A stretch of DNA of 62,236 nt, filler included, from Fonticula-like sp. SCN 57-25 (lineage: Eukaryota): assembly GCA_001724245.1 (NCBI GenBank). It is 10 parts of 10 records of this genome, joined end to end, with 100 filler letters (N's around TTAATTAATTAA, not from the genome) between each part and the next. Parts side by side here need not be neighbours in the genome. Positions count along the whole stretch, not along the records: positions 31,484 to 37,580 come from MEDX01000484.1; 9 more parts are not named here. One strand, written 5' to 3'. Below are positions 3,360 through 41,670 of this stretch, piece after piece; within the stretch, counting starts at the first letter, position 1, and each line of letters begins with the position of its first letter. Made by a program: the position numbers and the translations under genes. The notes under the pieces are model-generated. The model had not been told where the DNA came from. It did no database searches and saw nothing but the letters and a program-made list of their open reading frames with translations.

Positions 3360-5858
3360 ATGCCTGGAAAGCAGGTGCAGTCGCATGGAAGCCAGCGGCA
3401 GTCGTCTCTACTTCAGTTTTTTCGAGCCGCCAACAGTTACACGGCGTCATCGGATCCTTTGGACGAGTCGACACTTGACCAGCGTTCGCCTGTGAAGGCT
3501 CGCTTGAGCAGCAGCCAGAGCGTGCAGGACGAGTCCACACTCGACGAGGAGCCCGCTCAACTGCTCGGCGATAGTGGGTCATTGTTGAATGCCCGCGATG
3601 CTGAGACGGAGAGTGCTCTTCCATTGGATGCTGCGGTGGACCACAGCGGAGCCGCCACCATCGAACCGAGCAGTCCATCAGCAGTTGGTACCAGTGACTC
3701 GGCTGCTGTAACCAATGACTCTATGGAGACGGCGGGTGCCGTTGAACAGAGCTCGTGTTTAGAGAAAGTGGAGTTGACGAACCCCTTTGATTCGGTGCGG
3801 CCAACTTCACCCTCGCATCAGGCCAAAGGTAGCGGTGCCGACGACAGCTCCGTTTCTGGCCCTGATACGAATGCGATCGACACTGGCGACGAGGTATACA
3901 CCCCACACCGTAAGCGCGCCCGCACCGTGGCAAGTGATGACGACTCTGTCGACACTCCCGATAGCTTTTCATCCGCTGCAGCCTTGCCAGAGCGTCTCGA
4001 TTTAGTACGTTGCTCAACCGCATCCGTGTTCATGGCTGACCCTCTTGACCGCAGTCGAGAAAGTATGAATCGTCTATTGCGCTGGAAGACGAGATGGACG
4101 ACGAGGATTTGCCTTCGTTTGCGCGCGTGGTGTCGCCGCGGACGCCAAGCGTGGGCAACCGGTCAACGGCGTCGACGCCGGATTCGGGCGGCAGCACCGG
4201 AAGCGTTCGTTCGCTACGCGTGAGGAGAACACCAGAAGAGGCGATGCAGCGGGAGAGGGATGAGCTTTTGAAGAAAACGGCGGCCGCCGCCGCCCTGAAG
4301 TCGCAGACCGCCGCCTTGGACAAGATTTTAAGGGAGCGGACTAAGCGGGAGCGGGAGCGGGAGATGATCGACCGACTGTACGAGGAAGCGAAATCAGTGC
4401 GTGATCCATTTTTTTTCTTTTGCTATGTGTGCTGACGATGAGCTATGAAGGGTGCCGAAGCTGATGTTCTGGATGACGGCTTTTCTGTTGAAGATATTCG
4501 CGACAACATTCGCATGGTGCACCGCCCTTGTAAACCTTTCATTCTTTACTAATTCTGTTCATATTCAGCTGAATGCCTACACCGATTTCGATATTACTCG
4601 CCTTTCGGTTGACGCCTTTCCATCGTGGTTGACGCGTACGAGTCTTCCTTTACGTCTTTTAAAGTCCGTGTCGGATATCGGCTCTGGCATTGCAAGGCGA
4701 GCAGAGTGGCTCCGGCTCCGGATGGGGAGAGGAGATGTTGATTTTGACGGCCAAGCACGCGAGCTGGACGAGCTTTTTGAGTATGTCGTTTCCTGCAACG
4801 GCTCGAAGCAGTCGAGCGCCGCCGCTGGTTCGGTGATTCGCGCGGCGATTGAAGGCGAGCGCCATCAGCCGCGCATGGATGTTTTGTCGATGCCTTATTG
4901 CGCTACCGCTGCGCGCCCAACACAGCCGTCTCTGGTTCCCTCGTGGATCGCCGACGGGGGCGCATCTATATATAGCTCCTCATCAATGTTGACAGCTGCG
5001 CTTGATTCACTGGGCACGGGCTCGCCTGGGGCGAGCATGGTTGCGATTGATGCGAATAGCTTGGCCGTGTTGCCGCGCTCGAACGTCGTGGAGGCCGTTC
5101 ACTTGCTGTCAGCCATGGCGATCGCCAGCGCCGATAAGGCTGTTGCGTCGTTTCGCTCGCGGATGGCGTCGCAGCTGTTCTTCATGCTTGCTGACGATCG
5201 GTTCTGTGACGACCGTCCTTCGCTGGAGACGCGCCTCGTTGCGTTGCTGGAGTGCGATGGCATTCCGCAGTGCATGCTTGATGATATTGTCGCACGCGCG
5301 TCTGGTCAGTCCGGTTGGCTGAAAGAACGGCTCTTGCTTGCGGTTCCGCGAGTGCGTGCTGGAGTGTGGGTACGGCAGCGGCTCGCGTCGAGGTGGCTCG
5401 TTCGTGAGTTTGTCGGACTGCTCGAGTTGGTCGGCATGGACCGGCCGCCGGCTGCAGGTGCCCTTCTTGATAAGGCTGACAAGGAAGCTTTGACGGTTGC
5501 TGATTTGTCTGAGATCGTATCGGTATTCAGTGCAGCGCCGCCGCATCCGAAGTACTCTTTCGGAAACAATTCACCGTTTGCAAATTTTTACTTTTTGTTT
5601 ACATTCATGCTACACGCCATTCCGGAGCCTTCCGAGGTCAAGGCAGCACCTGCTAAAGATGTTGAGGAATTGCGGCTGCATCTCAAGGCTGGGATTCATT
5701 CAAACATTAACGAGAAGAATGGACTACATATTGACAGGTCGAGAGTCAAGTTTGTGATTGAGAGAATTGAGGGGCTTGTGGTTGCTGCCGTTCAAAAGGA
5801 GATGAGCGGATATGGGCAGATCTCGCTGTCAAACTTTTTCAAGAATTCTAATGAGTGA
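3360..5858 (+). CDS. Multi-exon protein with disordered N-terminus and helical C-terminal domain; possible SLF2/FAM178 (CANIN/Nse6-like) SMC5/6 loader
   Basis: Introns at ~4006-4054, ~4398-4450 and ~4517-4569. The C-terminus LKAGIHSNINEKNGLHIDRSRVKFVIERI resembles the CANIN-domain end as I recall it. The gene is solid; the family call is tentative. Confidence 0.45.
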
Positions 5859-6159
5859 TAGTGGCTGAAACTCACTGCATGCGTCTACGCGCATTGTACT
5901 ATATCACGTCTGTCTTAATGGCTCGTTTCTTTGCTCGCTTGTCTTTATGCATCTGTAAGTATCGTACATAAATAATATACCAGTAGTGTGATGATGGAGG
6001 AGATCTGCTGGTTGGGTAACAGAGGTTTATTACCAGTGCAGAAGGAAGAAGAACACTGAGCACAAAAAGCTACACGTATTTATACTAGTGCTTATTCAGC
6101 ATGACATGTGACATTACGTAATAAATGGAAGAGCCTAGAAGAGCCTCGAATACTCAAGT

Positions 6160-31483: not shown

Positions 31484-32230
31484 CCATCTTCTCACGTGGC
31501 CATAGCACTATGACTATCATCACGTGATCGTCGAGGACGACGATGAAGAACTTCTCCTGCATCACTTTCCCATGGCGCTCGCATTTATCGAGGGGCAACT
31601 CAGTCAGTCACGTGGCATCCTTATCAACTGGTGCGCCTCCTCATCTCTTTTGCCCATCCTCATCTGCTGATCTTGTTCTTCCCTTTTTTTCTTCATGATC
31701 TTCTCGCAGTGATGCCGGGATTGCGCGCTGCGCCGCGTTCGCCATCGCCTACCTGATGAAGAGCGGATCGCGATCGCTCCCCGATGCCGTCGCCATCACG
31801 CAGCTCTCCCACCGCGACGCATGGTACGCATCACATGACCACATCCCACGTGACCACATATGCTGACTGTTCACAGCCCGAATGAAGGCTTTGTCGCCCA
31901 GCTGCATCTGTTCCACAAGATGCGCTTCCTGCTCGACATGAACAACGCCGAGTACCGCGAGCTGCGATTGGCTGCCATGGCGAGGGAGCGCGAGCGGTAC
32001 AGTCACGTGTCACCGGCACTCTTTTACAGCGACGGGGACAGTGGTACGTGGGAAGATGAGGGTAGGGAAAGGGTAAGGGTAAGGGTAAGAGAAAGGGTAA
32101 GGGTGAGGGAAGTGTATATGTGTATGTATATGTCTAAATATATATATGTGTATATGTATATCTATGTATATATGTCTATTAAACAAGTACTTTTTTTATC
32201 AATCTATCATTAAAAAACTCTATCTATCTG

Positions 32231-32264
<34 letters not shown>

Positions 32265-32932
32265 ACACGTTCATTCTATCAATTTGTCCCTTAAGACTCA
32301 CCCCTGATTCCACCCCAGACATCGCCCCAGACACACCCACCACGCGCGTCCTCCGCTGCCGCGCGTGCACCCGCCCCCTACTAAAATCGCATGCGATTAT
32401 CGACCACGACGCGTCTTCCCGCCCAAAGGGGTTTGGCTGGCACAAGGACCCCGTGGGAAAGGGAGGGAAGGGCGTGGCCACGTGCACGAGTTGGTTTGTT
32501 GAGCCGATGATGTGGATGATGGGCGAGGAGGGTGAGGAGGAGGGAAAGGTGCGCATAATATGGCCACGTGGGTGGGTTGAAGGAAGATGTTTATATTGAC
32601 ATTGTGTATATATTATGATTCAATATGTATATTTGTGGCATTATCAGTGTGTCTTTTTATGGCATTGGTCATATGTGTCTCAATATCAGTCTAACTATCT
32701 ATCTATCTATACATTCTATATCTATCCATCGTTCTATCACTCTATCCTTTACCGGTCCTTACCATTTCGTCTGTAGATCACGTGCCCAAAGTGCAGTGCC
32801 AAGCTTGGCTCCTTCTCGTGGGTCGGCTCGCAGTGCTCCTGCAGTGGATGGGTGTCGCCCGCCTTTATGATTCACAAGCGAGCGGTTGACGTAATCATTC
32901 CAGTGCAGCGGCCGCCCGCCCCGCCATCATAG
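31484..32932 (+). CDS. DUSP12: Dual-specificity phosphatase YVH1/DUSP12 with C-terminal zinc-binding domain (5' truncated, multi-exon)
   Basis: Spliced NC|DAGIARC, AYLM, PNEGFVAQL, LRCRACTRPL, CTSWFVEPMMWM and GK|ITCPKCSAKLGSFSWVGSQCSCSGWVSPAFMIHK. Confidence 0.88.
32058..32264. repeat. Intronic simple repeats: (GGGTAA)n, (TA/TG)n and (TATC)n
   Basis: Read directly in the DUSP12 intron at ~32044-32296. Confidence 0.9.
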
Positions 32933-33464
32933 GCACCTTTTTCAGGCATCATGGCATTTTGACTATCAAATTCGTGTACATTTCAACTCTTCTTCACAAC
33001 TCTTTACTGGCATGAATGTAGTGTGCAATCATCGAGCAACTTTAGCGCATCAATAGGGCTGCCACACTGCTTGTTATACCCCATTGTCCATGAACAATAC
33101 CACAACCATAGTCTGTATTACAGCAGTGTAACAAGTCTCTGTGTCTCTCTGTGTCTTTCTTTCTCTCTGATACTTTCTTTTGTCTTCACGATATAATTGG
33201 TTTTCATTTATTGTCTGCTGAAAGAGATAGAAGAGAAAAAACTACACGGCAATGCCAGGAAATGGTCCGAAAGAGAGCGAGCGACCACCGCGCCGCCGCG
33301 TCACAAGCACACGAGGACCAGCCCCGCCGCCCGTTCCGCCGTCGGCACAATGCACACACGCCCGGCCCCCCTTCCTCCGGCGCGCTTCAAACTCAAACAG
33401 GTAAAAAAAAGATATACGATATCGCTCAAGATGAACAGCGCTCAGTCAGTCTGCCGAGCTGCGC

Positions 33465-35591
33465 TTACACGCGGCTCTTAAACTTGCCCGAGAAGCTGAC
33501 CTTCTTGGTGGCGACGAGGAAGACGGCGGCGCCGATAAGCGCAACACCGGCAATGACACCAATGACGATACCGGCGATGGCACCGGCCGAGAGGGTGTTG
33601 TCGGCGACGATGGTGCCCTTCTGCGAGCGGTTCGAAAAGTTGTTGTTGCGGGACGACATGTAGTAGAAGGTTCCGGTGCTCTGCACCTGCGCCATGTGGT
33701 CAAAGTAGGGCGTGGGCATGAGGCTGTTGTTGGGGTCGCGGGGGCCGTTCAAAAAGTGGCACGAGCGCGGGTTGTTGTTGGCGTTGGACTGGGTGGTGAG
33801 CATCTCCTGGGTCGAGAAGCAGTCCGACGGGTCCTGGCCGACCCAGGCGAGCGCCGCCAGGTCCTCCTCGGTAAAGAGGCCGCTGGTGCGGTTGATCGAG
33901 CGCGGCAGGTTGGCGTCAAAGGTCTGGAGCTCGACAACGTTGTTGCGGTCAGTGCCGGCGCGGCCCTCGCCCGCATTGTTGTTGTCGTTGTAGTCGGTGC
34001 CGTCCCACTGGAAGTGGACATAGTCGCCCTGGCGCACGTGCAGGTTGTTCGGCACAAAGTCGTACTCGACGCAGTTGCGGACCTGGGCAATGTTGCCGCG
34101 CTTGCCGCGCACGTTCAGGTTGTGAATGGTGGCGCCAGAGAGCTCGGCGGGGCGGCGGCGGATCTCAAAGATGTAGGTGCGGTCCTCAAAGGTGCGGCCG
34201 TACTGCGCAGTGTTGATGGCCATGCGGACGGGGAGCGCCTGGAGCGGGCTCAGCGTCGCGTTGCCCTGGCCGTACGTGTGAACCGGGTTGTTGCGCTGGA
34301 AGACGCGGTTGTTGGTGGCGTCAAAGTTCCACGCGACCTCGGCCGTCGAAATGTTGTAGCGCACGCGGATCAGGCAGCGCACGCTGTCCTTGTCGCCGAG
34401 AATGTTCTCGGGCACGTTCCACTCAAAGTTGGCAAAGGCGTCCTCGTTGCTCTCGTCATTGTCGCCGCGGTTGTCAATGTTGCCGAGGCGGTTGTCGGGC
34501 TGGTGGGCCGCGAGGCGGCACACGGGCAGGTCCCAGTTCCAGCTGCCAAAGCACGACCACTTGGCGCCCGCGCTCTCGCAGTCCAGCTTGTTGTTGTAGT
34601 AGAAGGCGGTCACGTTGGCGGCAAGGTCGCCGCCGGGCGCAGCGATGCAGTGGCACTTGTCCTTCTGGTTCTGCGACTCGGCGAGGTAATAGTCGCACAT
34701 GGACGTGTTGGACGTGAAGATGGCAAGATCGCGCCACGGGGTCGGGTGCCAGTACGGGTAGTAATCCTTCTCCTCGGGGCACTCAAAGCCGTAGCGGGCG
34801 CTGTTGGGCTCCTGGCGATCGGCGGTGGCGCCGCGGTTGTTGTTCACGTTCTGCGTCGACGTCCAGAGGCCGCGGTTGCGGTCGCGCGAGCGGCACATGA
34901 CCCACCAGTGCTCGGGCTCGTGGTAGCCGTACGTCTTGAGCTTGCGGGTGGAGCACTCGCACGTGTCAGAGTTGAAGGTGCCGCGGTCGCCGCCGTTCGA
35001 CAGCTCGAGCTCGTTGCACTGGGGAATGTCAATGAAGCCGTTGGGGCAGTCCGCGTTCAGGTCGGTGCGCGCAGTGTCGACAGTCACGGTCGTCGGGCGC
35101 GTGTTGGTGCAGGTCGAGCCAAAGGTCTCAAACGGATTGTTGCGGTTGCCGTTGGCGCACTCCTGATCGGGGCGGTCAACGCAGGGGCGGCCGAGCGACA
35201 TGCCGTCGGTCAGGCGGTACGAGTCCTGCTCGGACGGGCCGGCAAAGGCCTTAAAGTCATCCTCGCAGCCGAGCTGGATCACATGCTGGCACTGATCAAT
35301 CTCGGGGTTGGTGGGGGTGTCCTTGGTGGTGGCCTCGCCGTTACCGCAAGAGTGCTGCGAGTACCACTCGACGCGGAGAACGGTGTTGGGGTAGAAATAG
35401 AGCTCGTGGTTCTCGGGGGTGCCATAGCCGCCAGCGGCATTGTTCTGGGAGTTAAACATGCGGTTCGCGTTGCGGCGATCATTAGACTTTTCGTCGCAAC
35501 GGTCGTTCTGGCCACGGGGGAAGTGCAGGTAGACATCACCAAGGGCGACAGCCATGACGGCCGCCAAAACAAGAAGCGTCGAGGCGCGCAT
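33465..35591 (-). CDS. DD3-3-like type I membrane protein
   Basis: Signal peptide, DVYLHFPRGQNDR...NANRMFNSQNNAAGGY, RYGFECPEEKDYYPYWHPTPWRD, NLNVRGKRGNIAQV and SRNNNFSNRSQKG, then a C-terminal TM helix. Confidence 0.85.
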   Translation of the reverse strand: MRASTLLVLAAVMAVALGDVYLHFPRGQNDRCDEKSNDRRNANRMFNSQNNAAGGYGTPENHELYFYPNTVLRVEWYSQHSCGNGEATTKDTPTNPEIDQCQHVIQLGCEDDFKAFAGPSEQDSYRLTDGMSLGRPCVDRPDQECANGNRNNPFETFGSTCTNTRPTTVTVDTARTDLNADCPNGFIDIPQCNELELSNGGDRGTFNSDTCECSTRKLKTYGYHEPEHWWVMCRSRDRNRGLWTSTQNVNNNRGATADRQEPNSARYGFECPEEKDYYPYWHPTPWRDLAIFTSNTSMCDYYLAESQNQKDKCHCIAAPGGDLAANVTAFYYNNKLDCESAGAKWSCFGSWNWDLPVCRLAAHQPDNRLGNIDNRGDNDESNEDAFANFEWNVPENILGDKDSVRCLIRVRYNISTAEVAWNFDATNNRVFQRNNPVHTYGQGNATLSPLQALPVRMAINTAQYGRTFEDRTYIFEIRRRPAELSGATIHNLNVRGKRGNIAQVRNCVEYDFVPNNLHVRQGDYVHFQWDGTDYNDNNNAGEGRAGTDRNNVVELQTFDANLPRSINRTSGLFTEEDLAALAWVGQDPSDCFSTQEMLTTQSNANNNPRSCHFLNGPRDPNNSLMPTPYFDHMAQVQSTGTFYYMSSRNNNFSNRSQKGTIVADNTLSAGAIAGIVIGVIAGVALIGAAVFLVATKKVSFSGKFKSRV

Positions 35592-36228
35592 GACGAGTCA
35601 GGTGCACCGGCAAAAAATCGACGAAACTTGCGGATTAAAAATAACAAAAAACTTTTTCTTGGCCCGCCAGCAGGATAAGAAAAAAGCCTTCTTTAGTGAA
35701 ACACGGGCTGTGTGCGCGCGCTTCCCTGGACTCCTCTCTTCCTCCGCTCCTTTACTGCTGAAAGAAGGGGGAAAGGGTCGGAAAAGGGTCGGGGACGGAG
35801 AAGAAGCACAATAAAATGGTGCCACGGAAAAGGCCTAGCCTAAACGTGTGTTTGGGCGCCTCCCCCCCTCTAACGAATCAAAAATTTCCTCTTTTGGGTT
35901 GGCATGCAATCAGGAATCGTCTCGAAGGAATGGCATTCACCATACCCCATCATAATACGTCAATAGTCAATGAGACGATTTTGAGGAGAAGTGAGTAACG
36001 GCCCACATTCACTGTGTATCGATTGACTATGCCCAATATGGCATCTCACTATTCGGCGAAATCGTCCACGTGCATTCCCTTTGTAATTAATCTCGTTGAC
36101 CATTGTGTACCCCACCCCGGTCCGGACCCCGGGGGTACCCTGTTCCGCCTACTCGTTACATTGTTTTTTCAACGTTCTTCTTTTGGCCTCCCGGGCACTG
36201 CCGATCCCCGTCGACGACCGCCGCCGCC

Positions 36229-37580
36229 ATGGGTCGCATCGCCTCCCCCTCGCTGGTCGTCCTTCTGGGCCTCCTGCTCGTGACTTCCAATGCGTTCCCC
36301 GCCATGAACGCGATCCCTCCCTCTGATGTGAACTCCGCCGTCAACCACTACTTTGTGGCCCCCCTTCTGCCTCAGTACGCGCGCCCGCTGAATGGCGCCA
36401 ACGACAACAACAATGGCGGCTTCCTCGGCGTGCTCAAGGGCAACGATCTTCACTACAAGATTGCGCACTCGATCACTGCCGTTTCCAAGATTGGCATTTA
36501 CGGCCCGCGCCGCGCCACGACGGACCCGAACAATCTCGGCGTCGTGATCAATGACCAGGCTGATTCGCGCGTCGTCGGCATGGATGCCCCGCTCGTGAAG
36601 GAGCTTGACCCCTACCCGCGCTCGCTGAGCGGCGTGTGGACGCTCACCTCGGCCGAGATGCAGATGCTTTTCAGCCAGGCGCTTTTCGTGCGCATTGACA
36701 GCGAGGGCTTCCCGAATGGCGCGCTCGCCGGCGCCATCCTGCGCGACTCGTACGTCATCAACCTCCCGTCGTACCTGATCGACATGGTCGGCAATGACGG
36801 CTATCAGTTCCCTATCCCGACCGACACCTCGTCCAACTTCCCGAGCAGCGCCGGCACGACGAGCGTCGGCGTCGGCTACCTGTACATCTCGCTCACTGGC
36901 GCCCAGAACCGCTGGAACGGCTTCATCTTCCACAGCATGGAGACGCCCGGCCGCCTGCTCGTCCGCTGCAAGAACGGCCTCAGCGCCACCCTCGTGGCCA
37001 ACGGCGCCAGCCCCTTTGTCCTCAACAACGTCGAGGTCGATGAGGCCGTCAGCATGGAGATGCACGTCACTGGCCAGTGCTACCTGTTCGCCACTTCCGC
37101 CGCCTACCCCGACGGCGAGCTGTTCGCCTACCCCTTCAAGTCGTCGCACTTTGACGTGCAGCTCAACGGCGCCAACATGGGCGTCGCGAGCGGCTACGTC
37201 GCCTCTGCGCACATCTGGGCCGACCGCGCCTCCCGCTGGCTCTACGGCAACTACTTCTCCAACCTGACCACCGCCGACATCACCGACATTTCCGTGCACA
37301 ACCAGGACACGGACGCGCTCATCTGCCGCATGTTCCCCGGCGGCCTCCCCGCGACGCGCACGCTGCCGACCGTCGGCTGCCGCGTCAACGAGACCGACAT
37401 GGACGCCATCTGGAACGCGCGCACCTACGTCGTCGTGTCCACCACCGCCAACCCGGGCGGCGAGCTCAGGGGGCTGGCCAGGGTGACCGAGCAGCCGGAG
37501 ACGTCCAGCGGGCTGGGCGCCGGCGCCATCGCGGGCATCGTCATTGGCGTCATCGCGGGTGTCGCGCTCATCGGCGGCGT
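36229..37580 (+). CDS. Type I membrane protein with three CHRD (chordin)-like domains (3' truncated)
   Basis: Signal peptide. Three CHRD C-terminal motifs: FVRIDSEGFPNGALAG, YLFATSAAYPDGELFA and YVVVSTTANPGGELRG. TM helix at the contig end. Confidence 0.72.
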
Positions 37581-37680
37581 NNNNNNNNNNNNNNNNNNNN
37601 NNNNNNNNNNNNNNNNNNNNNNNNTTAATTAATTAANNNNNNNNNNNNNNNNNNNNNNNNNNNNNNNNNNNNNNNNNNNN

Positions 37681-38339: not shown

Positions 38340-41300
38340 ATGACGGACGACGAGCAGCAGGAGCCCCGTGTGGAGGAGCCCCAAAACAATGAGGAGCAGG
38401 TTGAGGCCTCCAACAGCAACGAGGAAGCCCAGGAGGCTCCCGCTGCCGAGCCTTCCTCGGAGGCCCCCGAGCCTGCCTCGGACGCTGCCGAGCCTGCCGC
38501 CGAGGCCGCCGAGCCTTCGGAGGCGGCGGTTCCCGAGACCTCCGCGGAGGCCGCTCCCGCCCCCGAACCCGAGCCTGCGCCGAAGAAGGCCGCTCCGAAG
38601 GAGGAGAAGCGCGTGAAGATCGAACTTGAGGACAAGTTCATCAAGGTACGGCGCCCGCACGCAGCGGTTTTGCATTGTTGACCGTTTGTTTGTATAGCTC
38701 TGCAAGGGAAGGGCGTCTCCCCATGAGCGCCTCTTTGTTCTTACTTCGGACGAGCCGCGCGCTATTCGCTGGAGCTCCCCGAAGAAGGTGCAGAGCAAGA
38801 GCAGCATCGACATTGACCTCGTTGTTGAGGTCATCGAGGGTCAGACCCACAAGTCGTACGTGAAACGCCCCACTTTGTTTCAAATCTGACAATCGGGGCT
38901 TGCTAGTTTCGCCAAGCATAAGAAGGCTGCTTGGGAGTCGCGCGCTCTGACCATTGTCTACCACGACTTTGCCGGTCACAACACGATCGATATTGTTGCT
39001 CACACCAACGATCAGCGCAACAAGTGGGCGCGTTCTATTCGTACCGCGATGACTCGCGTCAAGCACGATCCTATTCACCGCTTCCTGAAGATTGCCTGGA
39101 AGCACGCTGACACCAACGGTGACGAGAAGCTTGACTTCCCGGAGATTGTCGTGCTGCTCCACGGCCTCAATGTCCCGCTCAGCAAGTCCCAAGTGCAGAA
39201 GGAGTTTGATGGAGCCGATCCGGACCGCCTTGGTTACCTCGACTTTAAGCGTTTCGAGATTTTCTACCGCCGTCTCAAGTTCCGCCCCGATCTCCAGAAG
39301 ATCTTCTACTCGGTTGCGGTCGCGCGCAAGGAGGCGGTCTCGCACGCGGAGCTCCGCAAGTTCCTGAACAACGTGCAGGGCATTAAGGCGACCGATGCCG
39401 ATGTGTCGCTCATCATTCAGAAGTACAAGGACAACTTTGCGCCGAACGGTCACCTTTCCGTTGAGGGTTTCACCAATTACATGCGCTCGTCGGAGACGAA
39501 TGCGGTGTCTGCTTCTTTCAACAAGGTCACCCACGACATGACCCAGCCTCTCGCTGCTTACTGGATCAACTCGTCCCACAACACTTACCTCACCGGCGAC
39601 CAGCTGAAGAGCAAGTCGTCTCCCGAGGCGTACGGCTCTGCGCTCCGCCGCGGCTGCCGCTGCGTGGAGCTTGATTGCTGGGATGGTCCGGATGGTGAGC
39701 CGATCATCTACCACGGTTTCACGATGACGTCCAAGATCCTTTTCAAGGATGTTATTCAGGCCATCAAGGATAACGCGTTCCTCACGAGCCCCTACCCGGT
39801 GATTCTTTCGCTTGAGAACCACTGCGGTCTCATTCAGCAGGAAACCATGGCCAAGCACCTCACCAAGATCCTTGGTGACGCGCTCAAGGTTCCTGCTCTC
39901 GAGAGCGACGACTCCCCTCTCCCCTCTCCCGAGGCACTCAAGTTTAAGGTTCTCATCAAGGGCAAGAAGCTTCCCAAGGACCCCGAGATGTCAAAGGCCG
40001 AGAAGAAGAAGCTGGACCAGCAGCGCCTGAAGGAGGAGAAGAAGATCAAGGAGGCTGAGCGCAAGGAGGCTGCCCGTCTTAAGCAGGTTGAGGCGGACCG
40101 TGTCAAGCAGGAGGCCGAGCGCGCCAAGCAGGAGGCTGAGCGCCAGAAGCAGGAGGCCGAGCGCGCCAAGCAGGAGGCGCTTCGCCAGAAGCAGGAGGCC
40201 CAGAAGGAGGCCGAGCGCGTTAAGCAGGAGGCCCTTCGCCAGAAGCAGGAGGCCCAGAAGGAGGCCCAGCGCCAGAAGCAGGAGGCCCTTCGCTTGAAGC
40301 AGGAGGCCCAGAAGGAGGCCCAGCGCCAAAAGCAGGAGGCCCAGCGCCTTAAGCGCGAGGAGAAGCGTCGCCTTGCTGAGGAGCGTGGCGAGCAGCTCGC
40401 CGATGAGTCTCAGGATGTCATTGGCGGTGAGTCGCAGGATGCCATCGGCGAGGACGGCGAGAACGTCAACGAGGACGGCGAGAACGTCAACGAGGACGGC
40501 GAGAACGTTAACGAGGACGGCGAGAAGGTTGATGAGGACGGCGAGAAGGCTGACGAGGACGGTGAGAAGGCTGATGAAGCCGCCGCCGACACCGAGGAGC
40601 CCGTCGCTGAGCCCGAGGAGCCCGTCGCTGAGCCCGAGGAGCCTGCCGCTGCGCCCGAGGAGCCCGTCGCTGAGCCCGAGGAACCCGCTGCCGAGCCCGA
40701 GGAGCCCGCTGCCGAGGAGCCCGCCGAAGAGTCCAAGGACGAGGTGGCCGAGGAGGCCGAGGAGGCCGAGGAGGAGGAGGTGGAGCAGACTGGCAACGAG
40801 TCGGACTTTGAGAGCGACTCTGACGACGAGGACGTGTCTTCGGAAGTCAAGGCCCTCAAGAAGGCGCAGGGTAAGAAGGGCAAGGTCAAGCTCCCTGTTG
40901 TTTCCAAGGAGCTGTCTGCCCTTGTGCACTACTTTGCCGCCTCGCACTTCAAGGGCTTTGAAACGAGCAAGACCGCCCCCACGTGGCAGATGTCGTCGTT
41001 CGCCGAGAAGAAGGCTGTTCGCCTGAGCACCGAGACGCGTTCGGAGTTTATCGAGTACAACACGCGGAGCATCAGCCGCATCTACCCCGCTGGCGCTCGC
41101 GTGGACTCGTCCAACTACGATCCCACGCCCATGTGGTGTGCTGGTTCGCAGATTGTGGCCCTCAACTTCCAGACCATCGACCTCCCGATGCGCCTGAACC
41201 TCGGCAAGTTCTTGGAGAACGGCAACGCTGGTTACCTCCTCAAGCCGCAGTATCTGCGTGATACCTCGGTGGCCCCCCCGAACAAGCTCAAGAAGGTGCA

Positions 41301-41670
41301 GATCACGGTCATTTCTGCCCAGCAGCTTCCCAAGCCGGAGAGCCAGTCCAAGGGCGAGGTTATCGATCCTTACGTCGAGGTGACGATGCACGGCGTCGAC
41401 GCCGAGGGCAAGTTCCGCACCAAGGCCATCCAGGACAACGGTTTCAACCCCGAGTGGAACGAGACGTTCGTGTTGAGCACGACCGACGAGTCCACCGCGC
41501 TGGTCTCCTTCAACGTGTTTGACAAGGATGTCAACGAGGATGACTTTATCGCTGTCGCTGTCGTCCCGCTGTCGCTCCTGCAGCCCGGCTACCGCCACAT
41601 TGAGCTCCGTGACCACCGCTTCACCCAGCTGAACATGGCGTCGCTCTTTGTGCAGGTCAAGTTCTTGTAA
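38340..41670 (+). CDS. Phosphoinositide phospholipase C (delta-like PH-EF-X-Y-C2) with expanded X-Y linker; introns ~38646-38696 and ~38855-38905
   Basis: HDMTQPLAAYWINSSHNTYLTGDQL, GCRCVELDCWDG, YHGFTMTSKI, SLENHC, ISRIYPAGARVDSSNYDP and C2 motif NGFNPEWNE. Confidence 0.95.
40090..40730 (+). repeat. Coding minisatellites in the PLC linker: KQEA-based units, (EDGE[NK][VA][ND])x6 and (EEP[VA]A[EA]P)x6-7
   Basis: 21-nt units GAGGACGGCGAGAACGTCAAC at ~40450-40575 and GAGGAGCCCGTCGCTGAGCCC at ~40594-40730. Confidence 0.9.

Follow-up and report, generated by a model that had tools for sequence, protein, structure and literature searches.

To our knowledge, DD3-3-like proteins are widespread eukaryotic surface glycoproteins whose mechanism is not known, and membrane-anchored CHRD proteins are unstudied. 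One gene of each kind was found head to head in a 62,236-base stretch of DNA (the window) from Fonticula-like sp. SCN 57-25 (GCA_001724245.1), and the two encoded proteins carry an identical 19-residue segment in their membrane helices. In the accessible portions of the literature, functional work on DD3-3-type proteins concerns Dictyostelium DD3-3 itself, a homologue from a sponge and a relative from an ascidian. The accessible part of one report describes HrSMLP1, a DD3-3-like protein of Halocynthia, as a hemocyte membrane glycoprotein linked to allorecognition and self-non-self reactions (PMC6916515). DD3-3 and HrSMLP1 resemble the protein studied here in belonging to a family of large, glycosylated, single-pass surface proteins, whereas a partner gene, a CHRD neighbour, a function of the helix and a cupredoxin-like fold go unmentioned in that part of the report (PMC6916515). 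For chordin, the four CHRD domains are stated to bind sulfated glycosaminoglycans in the available portion of a further study (PMC13382577). Tandem CHRD modules are common to chordin/Sog and the present protein, the profile of which matched the structures 9qvv, 9igm and 9rd6 at E ~1e-8. In the present protein, however, three CHRD-like modules make up the whole ectodomain, which is membrane-anchored and without VWC.

The membrane helix itself has a described counterpart in CEACAM1. According to the accessible part of the study on rat CEACAM1-4S, a double glycine-to-leucine replacement in GxxxG removed ~100 kDa on blue-native gels, which was read as impaired dimerisation, and the glycine-to-leucine mutants were changed in oligomeric state and biological activity (PMC3250453). 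The transmembrane segment given there, GAIAGIVIGSVAGVALIA, agrees with the present helix at 15 of 18 positions and likewise places tandem GxxxG at the outer end of the helix of a type I protein (PMC3250453). CEACAM1 nevertheless belongs to the animal immunoglobulin superfamily and is unrelated in its ectodomain and its tail; the two helices resemble each other by convergence and not by homology, and the protist helix is known from sequence. Giardia VSPs, with a helix and a CRGKA tail, also set a fixed anchor under variable ectodomains, and both tails described here matched the VSP anchor weakly, below threshold. The VSP anchors are common to paralogues, whereas here the genes are unrelated and their DNA is without a copying signal. 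In the major histocompatibility complex (MHC) class II, the alpha and beta chain genes adjoin, and these type I chains pair in part via GxxxG helices. The transmembrane helices of these chains take part in homo- and heterodimer formation, as far as the accessible text of that work goes (PMC6769064). MHC class II chains are, however, paralogous, with complementary helices and proven pairing, whereas the present ectodomains are unrelated and the pairing is hypothetical. No description of a DD3-3/CHRD gene pair was found in the open-access literature searched. The helix is a new instance of the well-known GxxxG anchors, and the pairing of a DD3-3-like with a CHRD gene is the part worth following.

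A divergent gene pair and its counterpart in a relative

A first-pass annotation of the window had described two unrelated genes for type I membrane proteins that diverge across a 637-nucleotide (nt) interval, and had taken them for a co-regulated receptor or adhesion pair with selection acting on an exactly shared helix. The arrangement was confirmed: the two start codons face apart over 35592-36228, and each protein combines a signal peptide and a large ectodomain with a single C-terminal helix that is followed by a short tail. The features of the locus are as follows (positions count along the window; ORF, open reading frame).

33465-35591, minus strand: DD3-3-like gene, intronless, encoding P0001 of 708 residues (from ORF and translation)
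36229-37580, plus strand: CHRD gene, intronless, encoding P0002 and cut by the contig end at residue 450
35592-36228, no strand assigned: divergent intergenic region, 637 nt between the start codons
33531-33587, minus strand: helix segment, DD3-3-like copy, encoding AGAIAGIVIGVIAGVALIG, the outer two-thirds of the transmembrane helix
37519-37575, plus strand: helix segment, CHRD copy, encoding AGAIAGIVIGVIAGVALIG; the contig ends 5 nt later
33468-33530, minus strand: inner part of the transmembrane helix and cytoplasmic tail of the DD3-3-like protein, AAVFLVATKKVSFSGKFKSRV
33600-35537, minus strand: ectodomain, residues 19-664 of P0001, from the AlphaFold2 model and structure searches

The cytoplasmic tail of the CHRD protein, previously described as truncated, is interrupted by the end of the contig and not by biology. 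In the public protein collection, P0122 (470 residues) is a full-length protein with 100% identity to the CHRD gene product, and the missing tail recovered from it ends with ...IGGVIYFGVTKGWFSKVGGNSRV. P0001 and P0122 were each seen on four contigs, the longest being 7461 bp for both, which is consistent with shared contigs.

A second copy of the arrangement was identified in Joint Genome Institute (JGI) metagenomes. At this locus, L001, the DD3-3 orthologue P0028 on the minus strand (3321-1123) and the CHRD homologue P0142 on the plus strand (4830-5864) stand head to head, and the longest contig is 133,143 bases for both. P0028 is 50% identical to P0001 and P0142 is 28% identical to P0122; counted from the signal-peptide exons located there, 624 nt separate the start codons, compared with 637 nt here. 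As far as one relative shows, the gene pair is old and conserved. That arrangement and spacing have both outlasted a Fonticula-deep divergence speaks for a control region used by both genes in opposite directions and would point to a functional link between them. The interval at 35592-36228 is presumed to be a shared bidirectional promoter, and the ~630-nt region probably drives both genes, thereby keeping the pair together.

The linkage was thus kept in the relative, but the identity of the transmembrane segments was not. The two L001 helices agree at 12 of 32 aligned positions, and the four cross-genome comparisons gave 9, 10, 13 and 14 of 32. Because the value for L001 lies within this cross-genome range, the matching of the helices is not among the conserved features of the pair.

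Both L001 genes have a separate signal-peptide exon, and the CHRD gene there is interrupted by at least two introns. The genes here are single ORFs, indicating that intron loss or gain has affected the pair. Between the 637- and 624-nt intergenic regions, an A-rich 12-mer and one non-trivial 9-mer were shared, with ~1.5 such words expected by estimate. Conserved promoter motifs were considered for this region and rejected, the shared words being at about chance level.

The shared helix segment

Both copies of the helix segment encode the same 19 residues, and the 57-nt segments differ at eight positions, all of which are third codon positions and synonymous, as the annotation had reported. Its description of the GxxxGxxxGxxxG spacing was also correct: glycines at positions 2, 6, 10 and 14 form three tandem GxxxG motifs on one face of the membrane-spanning helix, flanked by beta-branched residues, and a further glycine occupies position 19. 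The inner-leaflet halves of the helices differ (AAVFLVA in P0001 vs GVIYFGV in P0122), as do the tails apart from TK and SRV (TKKVSFSGKFKSRV in P0001 vs TKGWFSKVGGNSRV in P0122). Outside these two genes, neither the exact 19-mer nor the G-x3-G-x3-G-x3-G pattern with small or aliphatic residues was found in six frames of the window, and a hydropathy scan of its ten contigs revealed no further short-tailed single-pass protein with this helix type. The CHRD helix segment was unchanged in a contig of metagenome run X4 that covers 37244-37580; the single variant letter of this contig is absent from the table rows shown (91 further rows are not shown).

In the DD3-3-like segment, otherwise rare T-ending codons make up 8 of 19, four of them GGT; elsewhere in this gene they account for 23 of 190 G/A/V/I/L codons (Fisher p 0.002). 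With 2 of 19, the CHRD segment is not enriched. The bias may serve to slow translation at the anchor, or it may keep the two neighbouring genes from forming an inverted DNA repeat.

The rarity of the exact segment was assessed by a word-indexed search with a 45-residue helix-plus-tail query in a 5.8-billion-protein collection, covering proteins of 80-2000 residues. Among the 13 proteins with E <= 10 from 617 candidates, the exact 19-mer was present in P0001 and P0122 only. Near matches were nevertheless found in proteins unrelated to either family. A possum (marsupial) CEACAM1-like protein agrees at 18 of 19 positions; P0124, P0128, P0129 and P0132 agree at 17, a level at which RCC1-repeat proteins are represented, and a Bipolaris protein and P0130, which has an aspartic-protease-type Pfam domain, at 16. 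The nearest CHRD relative reaches 15 of 19. In Pfam, the anchor regions also resembled the anchors of podoplanin, CD99L2 and Giardia VSP, in each case below the threshold. Membership in the podoplanin family (PF05808) was rejected, with 25.1 bits for P0001 and 14.4 for P0002 against a cut-off of 30, in the anchor region only. Judged by these sequences, the helix type is common and has been re-invented repeatedly in unrelated proteins of other eukaryotes. As an 'attractor' sequence it has arisen independently, and identity alone therefore cannot carry the inference of a specific interaction. Within the DD3-3 family, orthologues inherit a helix of the form SAGAIAGIV[IV]G... and a tail of the type TKK.SFS...SRV, and the helix of P0003, a protein 67% identical overall to P0001, differs at 4 of 19 positions. 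The proposed selection on the exact helix was not upheld, given the absence of identity in L001 and the recurrence of the helix type in unrelated proteins. Many copies of the 19-mer or a loss of linkage, which the annotation had named as outcomes that would speak against its proposal, were not seen; the loss of identity in relatives, which it had also named, was seen in L001.

The explanation we favour, while giving it somewhat less than an even chance, is a conserved, co-regulated pair with a generic anchor, in which the identity of the 19-mer is a lineage-specific convergence. Each protein would have inherited a glycine-zipper helix of the type LS.GAIAGIVIG... from its own family, and in this lineage both helices would have arrived at one and the same form of a widely favoured optimum. 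A shared membrane, shared sorting or insertion machinery and a shared base-composition bias would favour the same version in both proteins. By analogy with CEACAM1, the three tandem GxxxG motifs would most likely make the helix self-associating. Identical helices in co-expressed proteins could then give homo- and mixed oligomers equally, or lead to alike sorting.

Several observations weigh against this convergence. Among the 119 other DD3-3-like family proteins, the best agreement with the 19-mer is 15 of 19, reached by two proteins; because none of these helices exceeds that value, exact identity with the neighbour is unusual, and mere convergence must explain a coincidence of about 1 in 100 or rarer that fell on immediate neighbours. 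The edges of the identical block are sharp, with 19 of 19 followed by 0 of 7 positions, and such edges would equally be expected of an interface under selection or of an ancient conversion tract. Co-regulation, moreover, is deduced from gene geometry alone.

A pair-specific receptor complex, that is, an obligate hetero-oligomer held by matched glycine zippers whose identity is kept by selection, is possible but on the whole unlikely. Full identity at 19 residues with synonymous sites at chance level suggests that the identity is held at the protein level, and the ceiling of 15 of 19 in the family, the restriction of the exact 19-mer to these two proteins in the collection searched, and the linkage and ~630-nt spacing kept in a distant relative all agree with such a complex. 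At positions 10-12, P0001 departs from the usual G-[ST]-V of its family toward the G-V-I of its neighbour, and GxxxG helices of this type support dimerisation in CEACAM1. On the other hand, the 12 of 32 agreement in L001 falls inside the cross-genome range, an identical helix cannot separate hetero- from homo-association, and other organisms have helices of this type in proteins unrelated to the pair. The idea of a co-regulated receptor or adhesion pair consequently stood in its first part, the old linkage, and not in its second, since pair-specific oligomerisation hangs on the identity in one lineage. A related and doubtful proposal is that nucleariid/Fonticula-like protists possess an ancient and undescribed heteromer, a receptor or adhesin at the cell surface, with the DD3-3-like and CHRD proteins as its two subunits, one bidirectional promoter and zippers that co-evolve lineage by lineage. 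If so, the 19 of 19 identity would be an extreme case of helix co-evolution within lineages, and the poorly understood DD3-3 family, which is tied to self/non-self recognition in the ascidian, would gain its first functional partner.

It is rather improbable that the helix is a genome-wide anchor cassette, carried in the same or nearly the same form by many type I proteins of this organism, so that the identity of the neighbours would be incidental. The contig breaks 5 nt past the helix segment, and assemblies tend to break at repeats. In addition, a second contig of run X4 matches 37542-37577 (36 bases) only, with unlike sequence on both sides. Depth in that bin is 5.83, compared with 3.5 for the gene-spanning contig, which would place the extra contig at roughly the depth of the organism, and its flanks, read by eye in the frame of the helix, appear to have a serine-rich stalk before and hydrophobic residues after, as in another single-pass protein. 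This is, however, a single low-depth metagenome contig that is not assignable to the organism. Within the ten contigs of the window (62 kb), the 19-mer and its pattern are confined to these two genes, and no other exact 19-mer was found among proteins of 80-2000 residues in the collection, where a copy with a different tail would score about as P0122 did (29 bits, E 0.18). Taken by itself, the X4 contig may stem from a different gene whose helix is similar, and the break of the contig at this point may be due to it.

An old transfer of the segment, in which gene conversion or recombination between the inverted neighbours copied the helix and purifying selection then preserved it, is very improbable. 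The sharp boundaries of the block, the separation of the segments by 3.9 kb in inverted orientation, and the mosaic-like 19-mer, in which V-I (positions 11-12) is closer to the CHRD relatives and AGVALIG to the DD3-3 relatives, would fit a transfer. Codon identity, however, is at the level of codon bias: for two independent encodings of the same peptide by the genes' own codon usage (third-position G+C 0.89-0.91), 11.09 identical codons were expected and 11 of 19 were observed (P(>=11) = 0.62). Silent sites would thus be saturated and the transfer old, a time over which orthologous helices do change, as the four differences in P0003 illustrate, so that a complete lack of change would call for special selection; besides, no exact DNA match between the segments is longer than 11 nt. 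The same chance-level codon identity implies no recent copying, and a recent gene-conversion tract was dismissed, the DNA identity being no higher than the peptide and codon bias give.

Ectodomains and surroundings of the pair

Homologues of P0001 are spread across eukaryotes, with 1721 matches at E <= 0.001; the best named ones come from Fonticula alba (50%) and chytrids (~45%). The assignment as DD3-3-like was supported by the nearest Atlas structural cluster, 'Protein DD3-3-like', with template-modelling (TM) scores of 0.63/0.58 over 529 residues. A feature match in the Atlas to 'Protein DD3-3 family protein' scored 0.81 and is taken as a lead only. The label comes from the Atlas cluster and the homologues, not from direct alignment to Dictyostelium DD3-3. 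P0001 has an N-terminal hydrophobic segment, several N-x-S/T sites and a single C-terminal helix at residues 669-694. Its AlphaFold2 model, built from a 42-sequence alignment, reached a predicted local distance difference test (pLDDT) of 81.7 and a predicted TM score (pTM) of 0.83.

Residues 489-664 of the model adopt a cupredoxin fold, matched to plastocyanin by Foldseek at E 2e-4 with a TM score by target of ~0.6. Alignment of this part to purple cupredoxin with VIA-align gave Z 7.5 and a root-mean-square deviation (rmsd) of 2.5 over 93 residues, a Z below 8 being middling. The N-terminal beta-sandwich (residues 19-480) resembled lytic polysaccharide monooxygenases (LPMO), X325-type copper proteins and beta-sandwiches at Z ~6.4, which is a lead only. 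Plastocyanin-type copper ligands lie in a Cys-His-Met loop near the C-terminal strands. In P0001, the segment before the last strands of the cupredoxin domain, ...FYYMSSRNNNFSNRSQK..., contains no Cys or His by eye, and the would-be copper loop reads RNNNFSNR, with R648, N649, N650, F652, N654 and R655 invariant in the family. On the model, residues 489-664 look like a copper-less cupredoxin, as in ephrins, which were matched at Z 5.8. This fold assignment may be the first fold-level description of the DD3-3-like family.

The CHRD protein was matched by the Pfam CHRD family (PF07452) at 40.4 bits against a cut-off of 24.1 (E 6.3e-10), in two stretches with the best at residues 342-415, and the family profile matched chordin chains in the PDB at E 8.2e-9. 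In the AlphaFold2 model of P0122, three modules with approximate limits of 40-170, 181-300 and 308-419 each form a beta-sandwich of CHRD-like character. The earlier count was three CHRD domains; the model has three such modules and Atlas models with multiple CHRD modules align over 32-420, but Pfam itself gives only two stretches. Foldseek with the whole model returned macroglobulin and complement chains at an rmsd of ~25, and these poor global alignments were not used. A HMMER search of 1.84 billion representatives yielded 55 matches with E <= 0.001, including about a dozen eukaryote-like single-pass relatives, and membrane-anchored CHRD proteins of this architecture are rare.

The window is not a single molecule but ten joined contigs of ~6.1-6.2 kb each. 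The linkers have the form N44-TTAATTAATTAA-N44, giving eighteen 44-base N runs in nine pairs, each pair flanking a 12-base gap; TTAATTAATTAA was read directly in two linkers, and the nine linkers span 6160-56217 (37581-37680, for example). Because the pieces are separate contigs, any gene neighbourhood across linkers is artificial, and the piece that holds the pair is 31484-37580. The window contains long intronless ORFs, with a G+C content of 48-63%, and several of them, the CHRD gene among them, are cut at contig ends. These ORFs, the base composition and the closest named homologues point to a protist related to fungi. To the left of the pair (31484-33464), none of the 41 ORFs of at least 40 residues matched L001 or a further locus, L002, and no Pfam match was obtained for the flanking ORFs tried. 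On a separate contig, 39049-41670 on the plus strand encodes an 873-residue ORF which, from its translation alone, resembles phosphoinositide phospholipase C and has a ~250-residue, highly charged repeat region (KQEA..., EEPAAEP... units) between its halves.

The locus was present in bioreactor, wastewater and aquatic metagenome runs. At least 0.44 of its sampled words were found in four runs of three studies, one of which is possibly the source. Runs X5-X16 contained small shares of the sampled words and were not taken as habitat evidence, and the uncovered parts of the locus in X2, X4 and X5 carry no weight. In the RNA run X14, the DD3-3 gene was covered by short contigs at 85-99% likeness, and the CHRD gene had no cover at all; these contigs are likely to come mostly from relatives.

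C-terminal tails and the meaning of the pairing

P0001 has a cytoplasmic tail of 14 residues, and in both P0001 and P0122 the tail is short and basic, with S-R-V as its last residues. An ending of the form [RK][VIL] was found in 66 of the 119 DD3-3-like family proteins, 36 of which have [ST][RK][VIL], and in 9 of 12 CHRD relatives with a transmembrane segment. SRV, SKL, SKI and RKV types occur across both families. The CHRD relatives with a transmembrane segment have LSAGAIAGIVIGVVAAVAIVG in P0134 and KKGW...RKV in P0142, in keeping with a helix and tail passed down within their own family. A class I PDZ ligand has the C-terminus [ST]-x-[VIL]-COOH. With serine at position -2 and an aliphatic last residue, both C-termini fit this pattern. 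The basic-aliphatic C-terminus looks like a conserved sorting or PDZ-type signal of unrelated surface proteins, and through it the two proteins may both reach one export or scaffold partner.

For readers of sequence, the locus carries a caution: an identical 19-residue helix seems to be strong evidence of interaction, yet such helices arise independently, as in a filamentous fungus and a marsupial. The pairing of the two genes, kept at 50% and 28% protein identity with the spacing nearly unchanged, is one of few contextual clues to the function of these proteins. It suggests that the DD3-3-like and CHRD proteins act jointly at the cell surface, in a lineage near the root of fungi.

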